From IMG/VR virus record IMGVR_UViG_2698536443_000019: a stretch of 4,623 nt of DNA; one strand, given 5' to 3'. Within the stretch, counting starts at the first letter, position 1; each line of letters opens with the position of its first letter. Below are positions 1-4,623 of this stretch, piece after piece. The stretch is from a virus. Taxonomy: Duplodnaviria; Heunggongvirae; Uroviricota; Caudoviricetes. The notes beneath the pieces were generated by a model. It was not told where the DNA came from. It did not search any database and saw only the letters and a program-made list of their open reading frames with translations. A program made the translations under genes and the position numbers.

Positions 1-148
1 GTACGCGATCTGTTGCCCTGGAAAGTTGATCTGAGCTCTCAGTAAATATCAATACGGTTCTGACGAGTCGCTTACGAAGCCCAAAGGCCTCAGCGATTTT
101 AAAAACACTCCAGTAATAAGCATCACCGATCCCGCTCACATTTGACAT
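1..148 (-). CDS. nohA: 5' part of a Nu1-position gene (putative terminase small subunit), partial; continues beyond window start
   Basis: Only one minus-strand frame is open from 160 to position 1. ATG at 148-146 is preceded by GGAG with 6-nt spacing; an in-frame ATG at 160-158 has no SD. Translation MSNVSGIGDAYYWSVFKIAEAFGLRKRLVRTV... has an HTH-like segment loosely resembling the lambda Nu1 N-terminus. It sits about 185-195 bp downstream of the cosN-like site, as in lambda. Symbol is a synteny inference. Confidence 0.4.
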   Translation of the reverse strand, partial: MSNVSGIGDAYYWSVFKIAEAFGLRKRLVRTVLIFTESSDQLSRATDRV

Positions 149-214
149 AAGCAACTCCATCTGGCAGGTGAAAATCATGTTTATTTATATATTTCAATTA
201 ATTGCAAACTGGTC

Positions 215-290
215 TAATGACAGGGAGAAAGAAATATTGTACAGGTGAAAAGAGAAATAACTTTTAATTATCAATAAATTACCAAACATG
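215..290 (-). other. cosB-like region: IHF consensus site plus two R-like direct repeats
   Basis: Plus-strand 269-281 TATCAATAAATTA matches the IHF consensus WATCAANNNNTTR exactly. Plus-strand 224-237 and 247-260 carry a GA(A/G)AAAGA(G)AAATA direct repeat resembling the complement of lambda R elements. The region is AT-rich and lies between cosN and the Nu1-position start. Confidence 0.4.
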
Positions 291-332
291 CTGCCGCCGC
301 CATGGAAATGCAAAAACTAGCCTTTTTCCGCG

Positions 333-344
333 ACGCTCCCGCCC
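333..344 (-). other. cosN-like cohesive-end site
   Basis: Minus strand reads GGGCGGGAGCGT-CGCGG-AAAAAGG, against lambda GGGCGGCGACCT-CGCGG-GTTTTCG as recalled. It lies 184-196 bp upstream of the candidate Nu1 start codons, versus about 190 bp in lambda. Confidence 0.5.
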
Positions 345-372
345 GTGGCAGGGGCCCCCACCGGGAGGACCC

Positions 373-395
373 GACAGCCTGACAGCCTGACAGCC
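373..395 (+). repeat. Tandem 8-bp repeat (GACAGCCT x 2.9) in a GC-rich patch
   Basis: Directly visible: gacagcct gacagcct gacagcc. An 8-bp palindrome GGGGCCCC sits at 351-358. Confidence 0.6.
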
Positions 396-531
396 GTGAT
401 GAGCATCTGATACAGCGCTTTACATAATGGCATAGGAATAATTCAGAAGGACATCACAGCATGCCCACACAAATTAGTGTGAGTGTCCTGTTTCTTCCTA
501 CGCACAGGACTGACGAGCATGAGGGGAAAAT

Positions 532-699
532 ATGCGAACCATAAATGCCTCATCTTCAGCAATGCAACCGGCATCCGAACAGGACGATATTGTAAATTCA
601 CCTAATTACGAGGACATTGCAGTAGTTGAATTGCAGCTCTGTATTAGCCTGACAGTGACAGAATGCGATATTGACTCTGTCACAGGTGAAATAGTTTGA
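532..699 (+). CDS. Hypothetical small acidic protein (55 aa)
   Basis: ATG at 532 is preceded by GAGGGG with 6-nt spacing. Translation MRTINASSSAMQPASEQDDIVNSPNYEDIAVVELQLCISLTVTECDIDSVTGEIV, stop TGA 697-699. Below the 60-aa ORF-track cutoff. No recognisable family. Confidence 0.3.
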   Translation: MRTINASSSAMQPASEQDDIVNSPNYEDIAVVELQLCISLTVTECDIDSVTGEIV

Positions 700-719
700 A
701 TGATTAGCAGTTATGGTGC

Positions 720-926
720 TCAGTCAACCACCAGGGAATAATCCTTCGAATTCTTATCGTGCTTCACCAACGCTGCCTCAATTGCCCTGAATGCTTCCAG
801 AGACACCTGATGTTCTATACATGCAATTACAACATCCGGGTAACTCATAGAAATGGTGCTATTAAGCATATTTTTTACACGAATCAGATCCAACGAGACT
901 TCATCAGCAGATTGTTCTTTATTCAT
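720..926 (-). CDS. Hypothetical small protein (68 aa), unknown function; may correspond to a small Qin cargo gene such as ynfO
   Basis: ATG at 926-924 is preceded by GGAG with 7-nt spacing. The frame is closed upstream by a stop at 951-953, so 68 aa is the maximum. No family recognised. Confidence 0.5.
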
Positions 927-1226
927 TTTGTCGCTCCATGCGTTTGCTCGTCATCTAGCGGTTAAAATATTACTTCAAATCTTACTGCATAAAAGAGGAA
1001 AAGTATGAAAGTTTGAGTACATCGACCTTACATACATCTGTCGGTTGCATATCCCTCCTGGATGCCAGCAAGGCTCAATTTTGTTACGCAATCAACACTA
1101 TTCATTAAAAACAGGCTTAATATTTGACATAAATCATCAACAAAACACAAAGAGGTCAGACCAGATTGAAACAATAAACACGATAATGCTAACTACGCGC
1201 CATCGTATCACATGGAAGGTTTACCA

Positions 1227-1637
1227 ATGGCTCAGGCTGCCATTTTTAAAGAAATATTCGATCAAGTGCGTAAAGATTTAAACTGTGAATTATTTTATTC
1301 TGAGCTAAAACGTCACAATGTCTCACTTTATATTTACTATTTAGCCACAGATAATATTCACATTGTGTTAGAAAACGACAACATAGTGTTAGTAAAAGGA
1401 CTCAAAAAGGTTGTAAATGTTAAATTCTCCAGAAACAAACATCTTATAGAGACCTCCTATAATAAGTTGAAATCAAAAGAAATCACATTTCAACAATACA
1501 GGGAAAATCTTGCTAAAGCAGGAGTTTTCCGATGGGTTACAAATATCCAGGAACACCAAAGATATTACTATGCCTTTGATAACTCATTACTATTTACTGA
1601 AAGCATCCAGAAAACTACACAGATCTTACCACGCTAA
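1227..1637 (+). CDS. ydfO: DUF1398-family prophage protein (YdfO-like), 136 aa
   Basis: ORF 1212..1637 in the track. The second in-frame ATG at 1227 has GGAAGG 7 nt upstream, while the first ATG at 1212 has no SD. Sequence [18 protein letters not shown]... recalled as YdfO of Qin. Confidence 0.75.
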
Positions 1638-1645
1638 ACCATAAC

Positions 1646-1674
1646 GTCCGGCTTCTCTCACTCCTGAGCCGGAC
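1646..1674 (+). terminator. Perfect 8-bp inverted repeat downstream of ydfO (possible weak terminator or RNA stem-loop)
   Basis: GTCCGGCT-(13 nt)-AGCCGGAC starting 9 nt after the ydfO stop. The following T-tract is weak (tgcattggttt) and the loop is long. Confidence 0.3.
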
Positions 1675-1740
1675 TGCATTGGTTTAATAAAAACCATCAA
1701 CAATTGTGATTTAGATATTCGGAACCATTCAAATATAACA

Positions 1741-1762
1741 AAACCCCGTAAAAACGAGGTTT
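1741..1762 (-). terminator. Putative intrinsic terminator downstream of gnsB
   Basis: Minus-strand hairpin CCUCG-uuuuua-CGGGG (5 bp including one G-U, extendable by A-U pairs) followed by TTTTGTT, about 25 nt after the gnsB stop. Confidence 0.4.
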
Positions 1763-1788
1763 ATGGATAAATTTTATTATTGAATACA

Positions 1789-1968
1789 TCAGATTAAATT
1801 AATCTTGACATCATAGCTTTCAAGACCCGTCATTTTTTCCCGTGCGGTAAACTGAATACTGGTAACTTCTTTCCCGGTCTTTTTCTTAAGTTCAATAATT
1901 TTTTTTGTTATATATTCAGAAATATCTGCTTCTGCTTTTGTTTTTGTTTTTAAGTTTTCAATATTCAT
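1789..1968 (-). CDS. gnsB: GnsA/GnsB-family small protein (GnsB-like)
   Basis: Track ORF 1789..1971. Tandem ATGs at 1971 and 1968; the SD AAGAGGA is 2 nt from the first and 5 nt from the second, favouring 1968. Sequence resembles GnsA (…FTAREKMTGLESYDVKI…). Confidence 0.8.
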   Translation of the reverse strand: MNIENLKTKTKAEADISEYITKKIIELKKKTGKEVTSIQFTAREKMTGLESYDVKINLI

Positions 1969-2017
1969 CATTTCCTCTTTTAGTCTGTTATGACTTTCCA
2001 GTTACACAGTAAGTCGA

Positions 2018-2046
2018 TTATATGGTGCAAACGTGTAAAAGATAAG
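2018..2046 (-). promoter_or_regulatory. Candidate sigma70 promoter for gnsB
   Basis: Perfect TATAAT on the minus strand (plus 2018-2023) about 50 nt upstream of the gnsB start. The -35 is weak (TTATCT at 17-bp spacing). Confidence 0.35.
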
Positions 2047-2139
2047 ATGAAACATCGCAATAATCAACATACGATAGTCTAAATTTTACACAAACAGACA
2101 AAGAGAATTTTCCTGAATTATCAATACAATAGCATCAAA

Positions 2140-2295
2140 TCAACTCAAGAGCCTTATTGCTGCTTCCAGAATTTCTTCTGAAGTAACATGTCGATCCGCG
2201 GCTACATAAATGACTTTATGATCTCCGGTCAGAGATGGAAACCCTGCGGCCATTACAGTAAGGTGTGTTTTTTCGCCATTTGGATATTCACGCAT
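2140..2295 (-). CDS. ynfN: Small cold-shock-associated prophage protein YnfN (51-aa form)
   Basis: In-frame ATG at 2295-2293 has GGAG 11 nt upstream and gives MREYPNGEKTHLTVMAAGFPSLTGDHKVIYVAADRHVTSEEILEAAIRLLS. Longer in-frame forms (ATG 2370, TTG 2412) lack an SD and run into the upstream terminator. Confidence 0.55.
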   Translation of the reverse strand: MREYPNGEKTHLTVMAAGFPSLTGDHKVIYVAADRHVTSEEILEAAIRLLS

Positions 2296-2412
2296 GATGG
2301 TGTTAACTCCAGTCATCGCTGGCACTACCACTGCTGGTTCAGAGTTAAAAAAAACTATGATTTTTTTCATGATGTTACCGTAGTATGTGAGTATCCATCG
2401 AATAGATACCAA

Positions 2413-2436
2413 GCAAAAAAGCTCCCGAAGGAGCCT
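2413..2436 (-). terminator. Strong rho-independent terminator (UUCG tetraloop hairpin plus T6)
   Basis: Minus strand GGCUCC-UUCG-GGAGCU followed by TTTTTTG. On the plus strand the same hairpin is followed by a T-rich run, so it may act bidirectionally. Confidence 0.7.
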
Positions 2437-2641
2437 TCATTTTCACTTTTTTAAATCCAACGACAGACGGCTGGCATTTAAGTATTGTGAAATATTATCA
2501 AATGTAATCATCATTGATTTACAAAAGATACATTTTGCCCCGAAAGGATTCATGTCAGAAACATCAAAAGATGATGTTCTATACTGGGAACCATGACAAC
2601 ACGGGCATCTAAAGTGAATATGGTTTGTAATATTGTCTACC

Positions 2642-2854
2642 TCAAAGCGCCACTACATGAACAGCGGCAGGACCTTTAGGTCCGTTCTCAATACCAAATT
2701 CAACTTCCTGATTCTCAGTTAATGTTTTGAAATCGTTGCTCTGAATTGCTGAGAAATGGACAAACACATCTTTGCTGCCATCTTTCGGCGTGATGAAACC
2801 AAAACCTTTTTCAGGGTTAAACCATTTCACTAAACCAGTCATTTTGTTAGACAT
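2642..2854 (-). CDS. cspI: Cold-shock protein CspI (CspA family), 70 aa
   Basis: [38 protein letters not shown]... carries the RNP1 (KGFGFI) and RNP2 (VFVHF) motifs. The RBS context AAAGGTAATAATT-ATG is cspA-like. Confidence 0.9.
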
Positions 2855-3033
2855 AATTATTACCTTTTGAAGAAATTAGCCCTTGGGCAGAATGGTCCGA
2901 AAAAAATATCAGAGAGAAAAACCAACAAGGAAATCTCAAGAGGTACAAATAATAAAATTATAACAATGACTGCTTCAGATAAATTTGTAACAAACCAGAA
3001 CACCATTAACGCATGATTAACCACCCATAGCAA
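2855..3033 (-). promoter_or_regulatory. cspA-type promoter with AT-rich upstream region and long (about 140 nt) 5' leader containing a cold-box-like element
   Basis: Minus strand: -35 TTGCTA (plus 3028-3033), 17-bp spacer, -10 GTTAAT (plus 3005-3010), compared with cspA TTGCAT/CTTAAT. Downstream TGGTTTGTTACAAA parallels the cspA cold box ACGGTTTGACGTACAGA. Upstream is AT-rich. Confidence 0.45.
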
Positions 3034-3215
3034 GGATTACTTTTGTAAAGAAAAACACAGCAATGAAAGAATAGCTTTATTTATTAATAAAACGTGTCAT
3101 TCTGATTAAGACCTTTTATCTTACCCTTAAGATTTCAGGAATTTTGGCTCATGGAAGAGTCCTTTTTATTTAAATTTTACATTCCGCGATGTAAATGTTC
3201 CGATTTAATATTACC

Positions 3216-4239
<1,024 letters not shown>

Positions 4240-4243
<4 letters not shown>

Positions 4244-4428
4244 ATATATTTATGATGAGGACGCTCGTGCTTATTGGCAGGATTTTCAATCTTAAAGGAG
4301 TACTGATGCTGCAGATAAGACTCAACTTTTTCTGACAATTTTTCTGCTACTTCCAGGAAGACTTGCCGGACGCTCCTTCTGGCTGCTGCCTCATAAAACT
4401 CCAGCGCAGCTCCTTCAACACGGTCCAT
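4240..4428 (-). CDS. Small hydrophilic lysis-cassette protein (62 aa from the only canonical start); possibly YdfR-like, and possibly a 5'-truncated or mis-started longer gene
   Basis: ATG at 4428, stop overlapping the endolysin ATG (ATGA). The same frame stays open a further 40 codons upstream to a TAA at 4549-4551 with no ATG/GTG/TTG. Weak RBS. Confidence 0.45.
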
Positions 4429-4560
4429 GGCGACATCCAGGTCAAAAATTTCACCGTCAAAGCGTTCCTTGTCCTGTAAGGCTACAGTTACCGTAACTTT
4501 ATTCTCAAAATTACGGACTGAACCGCCCCGGGTTTCCTGGAGAGTGTTTTATCTGTGAAC

Positions 4561-4623
4561 TCAGGCTGCCAGATCATCGTTTCCGATGGAAGCATAATAA
4601 GCTTTTTCTGCTTCTGCCGGAGG
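4561..4623 (-). CDS. 3' end of an upstream ORF (partial, entering from beyond the window end); identity unknown
   Basis: Minus frame ...PPAEAEKAYYASIGNDDLAA-TGA ends at 4561-4563. A second minus frame (...LRQKQKKLIMLPSETMIWQPEF...) is also open from the window edge to 4488, so the true frame is uncertain. Neither looks like a holin. Confidence 0.3.
   Translation of the reverse strand, partial: PPAEAEKAYYASIGNDDLAA

Follow-up and report, generated by a model that had tools for sequence, protein, structure and literature searches.

In lambda-like phages the cosB elements are ordered R3-I1-R2-R1, with R2 inverted and an IHF site between the R sequences, and the terminase consists of Nu1 and gpA. 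The cos sites of these phages have 12-base 5′ ends related to GGGCGGCGACCT, a cosQ element (GGGTCCT) some 25-30 bp upstream of the nick, and nicks that are flanked by CG (Feiss et al., PMC4669245). The part of the lambda site that is conserved and sensitive to mutation comprises the left cosN half together with the CG dinucleotides beside it, and the G2C mutation lowers yield ~10-fold, whereas the symmetric C11G change has no effect (PMC4669245). The right half of cosN (bp 7-12) is naturally variable and tolerates mutation (Feiss et al. 2015, PMC4669245). With the same cosQ and cosN sequences, lambda and phage 21 nevertheless discriminate more than 1000-fold, and specificity resides in the TerS-cosB interaction (PMC4669245). 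When cos is retained in a defective prophage, the terminase of a related phage can cut the chromosome and stimulate recombination beside cos, as described for lambda and DLP12 (PMC3945230).

A second cos type, which follows the lambda-like scheme, is known as the termini of two deposited phage genomes, cdtI (AB285204 / NC_009514) and Tritos (OV696610), the latter being prophage 3 of E. coli LF82, which gives virions and plaques (PMC9928086). Here we analyze a copy of this type in a 4,623-nt stretch of viral DNA (IMG/VR record IMGVR_UViG_2698536443_000019), referred to below as the window. We consider it likely that ~149-372, read on the minus strand, is the cos site of a cdtI/Tritos-type prophage and that this copy is a relic, with a one-base lesion at the nick that is real and impairs function. 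The lesion, which is unique to the window, is the only unusual point. A preliminary description, which had placed a lambda-like cosN and cosB ahead of the small-terminase start of a prophage, is borne out in that respect by the cosQ, cosN, and AT-rich cosB elements described below; its view of the site as apparently intact is not.

A lambdoid late region bounded by insertion sequences

On its minus strand, the window presents a lambdoid prophage's late region, in which a 68-residue ORF is followed by a 560-bp non-coding stretch and then by the first codons of a gene that starts at 160 or 148 (Table 1). The order ydfR-rrrQ-rzpQ-cspI-ynfN-gnsB-ydfO is that of the K-12 Qin region, but prophages of many other E. 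coli provide a far closer match. The window was found unbroken in no complete E. coli genome of our collection, where the best matches covered 96-98%. Insertion sequences form the two ends of the window, and the prophage is heavily IS-ridden, which points to a Shigella-like or IS-rich E. coli source outside that collection. Positions 1-75 match one end of the IS66-family element in NZ_CP118601 (7032-7106 of our extracted locus L006) at 96% identity, and homology to cdtI and O26-type prophages ends at window position 76. The IS3-family (IS629-like) end on the other side is 100% identical to an element in NZ_CM129856.

Table 1. Features of the window. Positions from the nick are counted along the minus strand.
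Feature	Coordinates	Strand	Position from nick	Remarks
IS66-family insertion sequence, terminal 75 bp	1-75			interrupts terS
terS 5′ remnant, DUF1441 family	76-160	-		ATG codons at 160 and 148; RefSeq start is 148
Repeat Rc, GATTTTCACCTG	165-176	-	+169..+180	repeats the Ra core exactly; shortly ahead of the terS ribosome-binding site
Perfect 10-bp palindrome, CAATTAATTG	195-204		+141..+150	inside cosB
Repeat Rb, ATTTCTTTCTCCCTGT	220-235	-	+110..+125	imperfect direct copy of Ra
Repeat Ra, ATTTCTCTTTTCACCTGT	241-258	-	+87..+104	candidate TerS-binding (R-type) site
IHF consensus, TATCAATAAATTA (= WATCAANNNNTTR)	269-281	+	+64..+76	bottom strand of phage map
Element at lambda R3 position, CATTTCCATGGCGGCGGCAGCATG	287-310	-	+35..+58	
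cosN-proximal block, CGCGGAAAAAGGCTAGTTTTTG	311-332	-	+13..+34	A5/T5 tract pair; common to all DUF1441-type cos sites
cosN	331-346	-		GGGCGGGAGCGT (344->333), right flank CG (332-331), left flank AC (346-345)
cosQ	366-372	-		GGGTCCT, the same 7 bp as the packaging-termination site of lambda
68-aa ORF	720-926			
ydfO	1212-1637	+		
gnsB	1789-1971			in minus-strand gene order
ynfN				between cspI and gnsB in gene order
cspI	2642-2854			with cspA-type leader (Rfam)
rzpQ	3216-3713			in minus-strand gene order
Lysozyme gene rrrQ	3710-4243			in minus-strand gene order
ydfR, partial				first gene as read on the minus strand
IS3-family (IS629-like) end	about 4517-4623			inside ydfR

K-12 Qin and DLP12 (nohA and nohB, respectively) are likewise defective lambdoid prophages in which cos lies beside a truncated small-terminase gene. 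At the equivalent map position, however, Qin (NC_000913.3, ~1636350-1636560) carries a lambda-type packaging module, with GGGCGGCGACCT, lambda-like R sites, and the Nu1-family gene nohA, whereas the module of the window is that of cdtI and Tritos. Thus, at least two distinct cos/terS modules accompany Qin-type late regions. The right arm of Tritos is 99% identical to the window through ynfN-gnsB-ydfO, and the window belongs to a cdtI/Tritos-type prophage that combines the Qin late-region gene order with a different packaging module.

Two further features of the late region are recorded here. Positions 574-718 are 87% identical to lambda 47946-48090, a non-coding stretch downstream of lambda orf p79, and the 68-residue ORF occupies the p79 position directly upstream of this stretch. 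In gnsB, a 6-bp tandem insertion (TTTTGT, minus strand, 1936-1941) distinguishes the window from all close relatives and adds two codons to GnsB in frame.

cosN and cosQ elements and the ends of related phage genomes

The sequence GGGCGGGAGCGT at 344->333 on the minus strand is followed by CGCGG at 332->328, and the 17 bases, which the preliminary description had called a close match to lambda GGGCGGCGACCT-CGCGG, agree with it at 13 positions. The cohesive-end sequence itself agrees with lambda at 8 of 12 positions (1-6, 10, and 12), including the entire left half, and differs at positions 7, 8, 9, and 11; because the 17-mer thus carries four mismatches, a search of the window with the lambda 17-mer that allowed three found nothing. 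A 7-bp cosQ identical to that of lambda lies at 366-372, beyond the range of 215-345 originally assigned to the site, and had been missed. It spans -28..-22 from the nick in the window, -29..-23 in relatives, and -30..-24 in lambda, and is 1-2 bp nearer the nick than in lambda. As in lambda, a GC-rich cosN (77% at 331-390) gives way to an AT-rich cosB (25-30% GC at 151-270), the start of the small-subunit gene is ~190 bp away, and, judging from relatives of the window, the large subunit is of the gpA family.

Directly upstream of cosQ, about three copies of an 8-bp tandem repeat, GGCTGTCA, occupy 373-395 on the minus strand; the copy number differs between relatives, and cdtI has none. Rfam searches gave no match in the cos region, and a scan for promoters and terminators gave nothing informative there.

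In the group of N15, phiD326, and Gifsy-1, bp 7-12 are reported to vary naturally, and this is the half in which all of the differences between the window and lambda fall; these phages, however, have Nu1-type TerS proteins, and the window additionally breaks the rule of conserved CG flanks and left half. Gifsy-1 departs from the lambda sequence at positions 8, 9, and 11 by the published description (PMC4669245), and the window end would therefore be one base from that of Gifsy-1. As a DUF1441 relative, Gifsy-1 was rejected, its head genes being of lambda/21 type. The Salmonella DUF1441 examples are Gifsy-2 and Fels-1, and the Gifsy-2 cosN looks different.

Phage genome records and position-conserved elements establish that the resemblance to cos exceeds chance. 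First, when phage records were searched with window positions 1-720 (minus strand), cdtI aligned from its base 1, which is homologous to window base 344, and Tritos aligned through its last base on the other side of the nick. Both genomes begin with GGGCGGGAGCGTCGCGGAAAAAGG, which starts with GGGCGGGAGCGT, and both end with CCTGCCACG (...CCACG). Since two independent deposits coincide with the lambda nick position, we infer that these record starts represent the true nick. Second, the cdtI and Tritos cos sites share with the window the 12-nt end, cosQ, cosB (~98% identity over 205-269 nt; 97.6-98.5% over the 205 nt from cosQ through cosB to the terS start), the start of a DUF1441 TerS, and the distance to that start. 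Apart from the nick, they differ from the window by 2-3 substitutions, located within Rb and close to the ribosome-binding site of terS. Third, cosQ was present in 77/77 motif-bearing loci among 80 IMG/VR loci that were retrieved through TerS, and in 74 of these 77 the distance from cosN to the ATG was 196 nt, as in the window; the cosQ-to-nick spacing shifts by one base in either direction in a few of them.

TerS alignment of viral contigs returned only loci that were 99-100% identical, and these were used for counting the nick sequence rather than for footprinting. For the latter purpose, we fetched six loci with diverged TerS proteins, one of which had no cos upstream. Relatives with TerS 61-84% identical keep cosQ, CACG/GGG (here and below, the first slash marks the top-strand nick), the block CGCGGRAAAMGGCTAGTTTTTG, and the IHF site. 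They also keep motifs resembling TTTTCACCTG at about +93 and +171, one relative having them exactly, and hardly any gaps are required to align the stretch that runs from cosN to the start codon.

The exact cosQ-cosN core of this cos type, CCACGGGGCGGGAGCGTCGCGG, occurs in 1,862 of 5,426 complete E. coli genomes, in at least 120 viral contigs, and in at least 120 metagenome contigs. It is joined to at least three cosB/TerS classes, all DUF1441 (represented by our loci L010 and L009 and the IMG/VR loci L017-L136), with a mosaic junction near +35. A common core with exchangeable cosB and TerS parts is the same modular logic that distinguishes lambda from 21.

Candidate binding elements in cosB

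Although cosQ, the left half of cosN, and CGCGG align with the lambda cos region, the cosB of the window is not alignable with that of lambda. The cosN-proximal block at 311-332 is invariant or nearly so, column by column, when relatives with TerS identities of only 61-84% are aligned, and it is present in cosB classes A, B, and C, of which class A is the cdtI/Tritos type. Next to it, the element at the lambda R3 position contains a triplet-periodic part, GGCGGCGGCAGCATG, at 287-301 (+44..+58), where other DUF1441 classes have a sequence of CATCATCATCA type.

The window holds a single exact match to the IHF consensus WATCAANNNNTTR, at the site originally proposed. Taken alone, such a match carries little weight, as 0.49 matches are expected per window and at least one was found in 72/200 shuffles. 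Nevertheless, 9 of 12 cos sites of the DUF1441 type carry a match with no more than one mismatch at +62..+76, five of them exact, in cosB sequences that are otherwise diverged. An IHF match on the same strand lies at +79..+91 in the lambda I1 region, and the window site is 10-15 bp from the lambda I1 position. The assignment of 269-281 as an IHF site within cosB is a well-supported prediction, and by position it is probably a bending site of the I1 type.

Of the direct repeats, the two described previously (Ra and Rb) are present but imperfect, and we add a third, Rc. A repeat search of the window returned 225-238 and 252-265 at 79%. The exact 10-mer CAGGTGAAAA occurs in the window only at 165-174 and 242-251, and a 10-nt exact repeat within cosB was seen in 38/2000 shuffles. 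In one relative, L224, with a TerS 75% identical, TTTTCACCTG within Ra keeps its position even though its flanks have diverged, and Rc is conserved as well. These repeats are candidate TerS sites on the basis of recurrence and position. The 10-bp palindrome at 195-204 is retained in another locus, L223, and absent from L224.

A lambda-style inverted R3/R2 pair was sought around the IHF site, and no convincing pair was recognized, all three repeats being direct. Inspection of the alignments across relatives revealed no clear pattern in which the recognition helix of TerS covaries with the repeats.

A truncated terS gene of the DUF1441 family

The preliminary description had placed a Nu1-position start about 185-195 bp from the site. 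The distance holds, as the minus-strand ATG codons at 160 and 148 are 184 and 196 bp from base 344, but the gene belongs to a different family and is cut after codon 24. These codons, which are identical to the terS starts of cdtI and Tritos, end inside the predicted winged helix-turn-helix DNA-binding domain, where the IS66-family element interrupts the gene 269 bp from the nick. Unlike cdtI and Tritos, the prophage thus has no intact cognate terS.

The full-length TerS proteins of cdtI, Tritos, and E. coli prophages match Pfam PF07278 (DUF1441), not PF07471 (Phage_Nu1), the family of lambda TerS. In relatives, the gene that follows terS encodes a large subunit of the gpA family that has both an ATPase and a nuclease domain; the window itself contains no TerL gene. 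An AF2 model of TerS has an N-terminal domain with the arrangement beta-H-H-beta-beta-H, and the predicted fold class is the only point on which DUF1441 and Nu1 agree. The sequence similarity was rejected as a sign of common family membership: hhalign aligned the HTH and wing of the two families, but with E = 0.074 and a probability below 1%. A search of PDB sequences with TerS returned only a MarR protein (E = 0.13). The packaging system is therefore lambda-like in its working, but its recognition subunit comes from another family. To our knowledge, the cosB of a DUF1441 terminase has not been dissected experimentally, which is a trait of the family rather than of the window.

A pac or headful site, which would have a pac-type terminase and permuted ends, was also considered but does not agree with the gpA ATPase and gpA nuclease of the relatives' TerL or with the single unique start shared by two phage records.

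One of the loci fetched for footprinting (L228, JGI 3300025728 contig) encodes a TerS 89% identical to the cdtI type, has no recognizable cosQ or cosN upstream, and lacks preceding lysis genes. This locus may represent a satellite, or an element that has been rearranged.

A one-base lesion at the top-strand nick

The window reads CAC/GGGCGG at the nick, with a run of three Gs at 342-344, whereas every relative examined has four, in the form CACG/GGGCGG. The comparison covered cdtI, Tritos, HannyBb, three E. coli prophages, mEp460, PhiR40_1, VT1-Sakai, 1720a-02, mEp043, a Klebsiella phage, and lambda. The deletion removes the conserved G that precedes the top-strand nick. As a result, the right flank retains its conserved CG (332-331), but the left flank is AC rather than CG. 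Stated differently, the deletion either converts the CG before the top-strand nick to AC or places the conserved flanks 11 bp apart rather than 12.

The three-G form appears to be confined to the window. A 60-nt search centered on the nick hit 1,997 places across 5,426 E. coli genomes; none was identical to the window, and the best matched at 60/61 with one gap. All 77 motif-bearing loci retrieved through TerS, and hence independently of cosN, have four Gs. Scans of viral and metagenome contigs found no three-G form in either set and at least 120 four-G copies in each. Six matches to the three-G string in a scan of one genome per species all came from high-GC, non-enteric organisms and were discarded as chance.

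Most likely, the deletion is real and weakens or misplaces top-strand nicking. If so, the site would probably be a poor substrate even for a matching helper. We regard it as possible, though doubtful, that cos remains fully usable in trans: the loss of one base would be tolerated, a cosB-anchored terminase would still nick to give 11- or 12-nt ends, and a phage of the same TerS class, whether co-resident or superinfecting, could cut the site and package adjacent chromosome. Consistent with such tolerance, the site matches that of the nearest prophage (NZ_CP074819) base for base from cosQ up to the start of terS except for the missing G, and it differs by few bases from the site of plaque-forming Tritos. 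The one-base shifts in cosQ-to-nick spacing noted above also indicate some latitude, as do natural differences in cosN length. Among cos sites of the Stx-phage type, VT1-Sakai (L011) and 1720a-02 (L014) have 11 and 10 bp, respectively, between CACG/ and /CGCGG, and the 11- and 10-bp forms GGGCGGGCGGG and GGGCGGGCGG are carried by 17 and 45 viral contigs (L350-L411). These forms could represent natural cosN length polymorphism or shifted nick positions, and because such spacings are natural in related phages, an 11-bp spacing may not be fatal to a gpA-type nuclease. The 11- and 10-bp lineages, however, keep the G4 run and have TerS/TerL lineages of their own. The absence of the three-G form from ~2,000 E. 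coli copies and from the TerS-anchored, viral, and metagenome sets likewise speaks against full function, as do the damage caused by left-half cosN changes in lambda and the conservation of the flanking CG (PMC4669245).

It is unlikely that the missing G reflects an assembly or sequencing error and that the genomic site is an ordinary, intact cos. A single-base change within a homopolymer run is the kind of difference that such an error could leave, but a run of four is not a typical error site. Moreover, only three events separate the window from NZ_CP074819 over 4,444 nt, namely the G deletion, the 6-bp tandem insertion in gnsB, and one substitution, and all 20 other homopolymer runs (A/T ≥6, G/C ≥4), including an A8 and a T8, are unchanged. 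The small number of events and the constancy of these runs make a general problem of sequencing quality unlikely.

We think it improbable that the G was lost as a scar, left when the terminase of a co-resident phage with matching specificity cut the site and the ends were imprecisely rejoined, or as a selected immobilizing mutation that keeps a helper from cutting the chromosome at this point; were either true, such lesions in cos would be markers of prophage domestication. Finally, the possibility that 215-345 is merely the intergenic leader of a terS operon with a fortuitous likeness to cos is extremely slight: the lambda match alone (13/17; a local alignment with the 57-nt lambda cos core, -35..+22, fell in the right place but was equalled in 62/300 block shuffles) and the IHF match alone are not significant, but the records of two phage genomes begin at the nick position predicted, the cosQ heptamer is identical, diverged relatives keep the IHF site and flanks in place, and the associated TerL is of the gpA family.

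Packaging model and consequences for mobilization

By analogy with lambda, a DUF1441 TerS at an intact copy of this site would bind the AT-rich cosB through its N-terminal winged helix-turn-helix, with the TTTTCACCTG-type repeats at 165-176, 220-235, and 241-258 as candidate sites, and IHF would bend the DNA at 269-281. Together, TerS binding and the IHF bend may position the gpA-family large subunit on cosN, where nicks 12 bp apart, after CACG in the top strand and before CGCGG in the bottom strand, would generate the 5′ end GGGCGGGAGCGT. DNA would then be packaged toward terS, and cosQ would serve termination at the next cos. The window copy is better described as a relic, in which terS is split by an IS66-family element, the lysis region is bounded by an IS3-family element, and cosN lacks one G.

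It had been proposed that a helper lambdoid terminase could package or transduce this region. With specificity residing in the TerS-cosB interaction, only a helper with this DUF1441 TerS class, of the cdtI/Tritos type, is plausible, and lambda is not expected to recognize this cosB. In addition, packaging by the lambda analogy would run from 344 toward coordinate 1 and beyond, through the IS66-family element; the lysis and csp genes at 345-4623 would lie upstream, out of the packaging direction. For termination, another cos, placed about one genome length away and oriented the same way, would also be needed. The lesion at the nick, the two insertion sequences, and the need for a matching DUF1441 helper together make the potential for mobilization probably lower than first supposed.

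A retained cos can also start packaging of neighboring host DNA, but stimulation of recombination with an infecting relative is the more realistic effect. More generally, a cos site defines where a prophage genome truly ends and how it is oriented.
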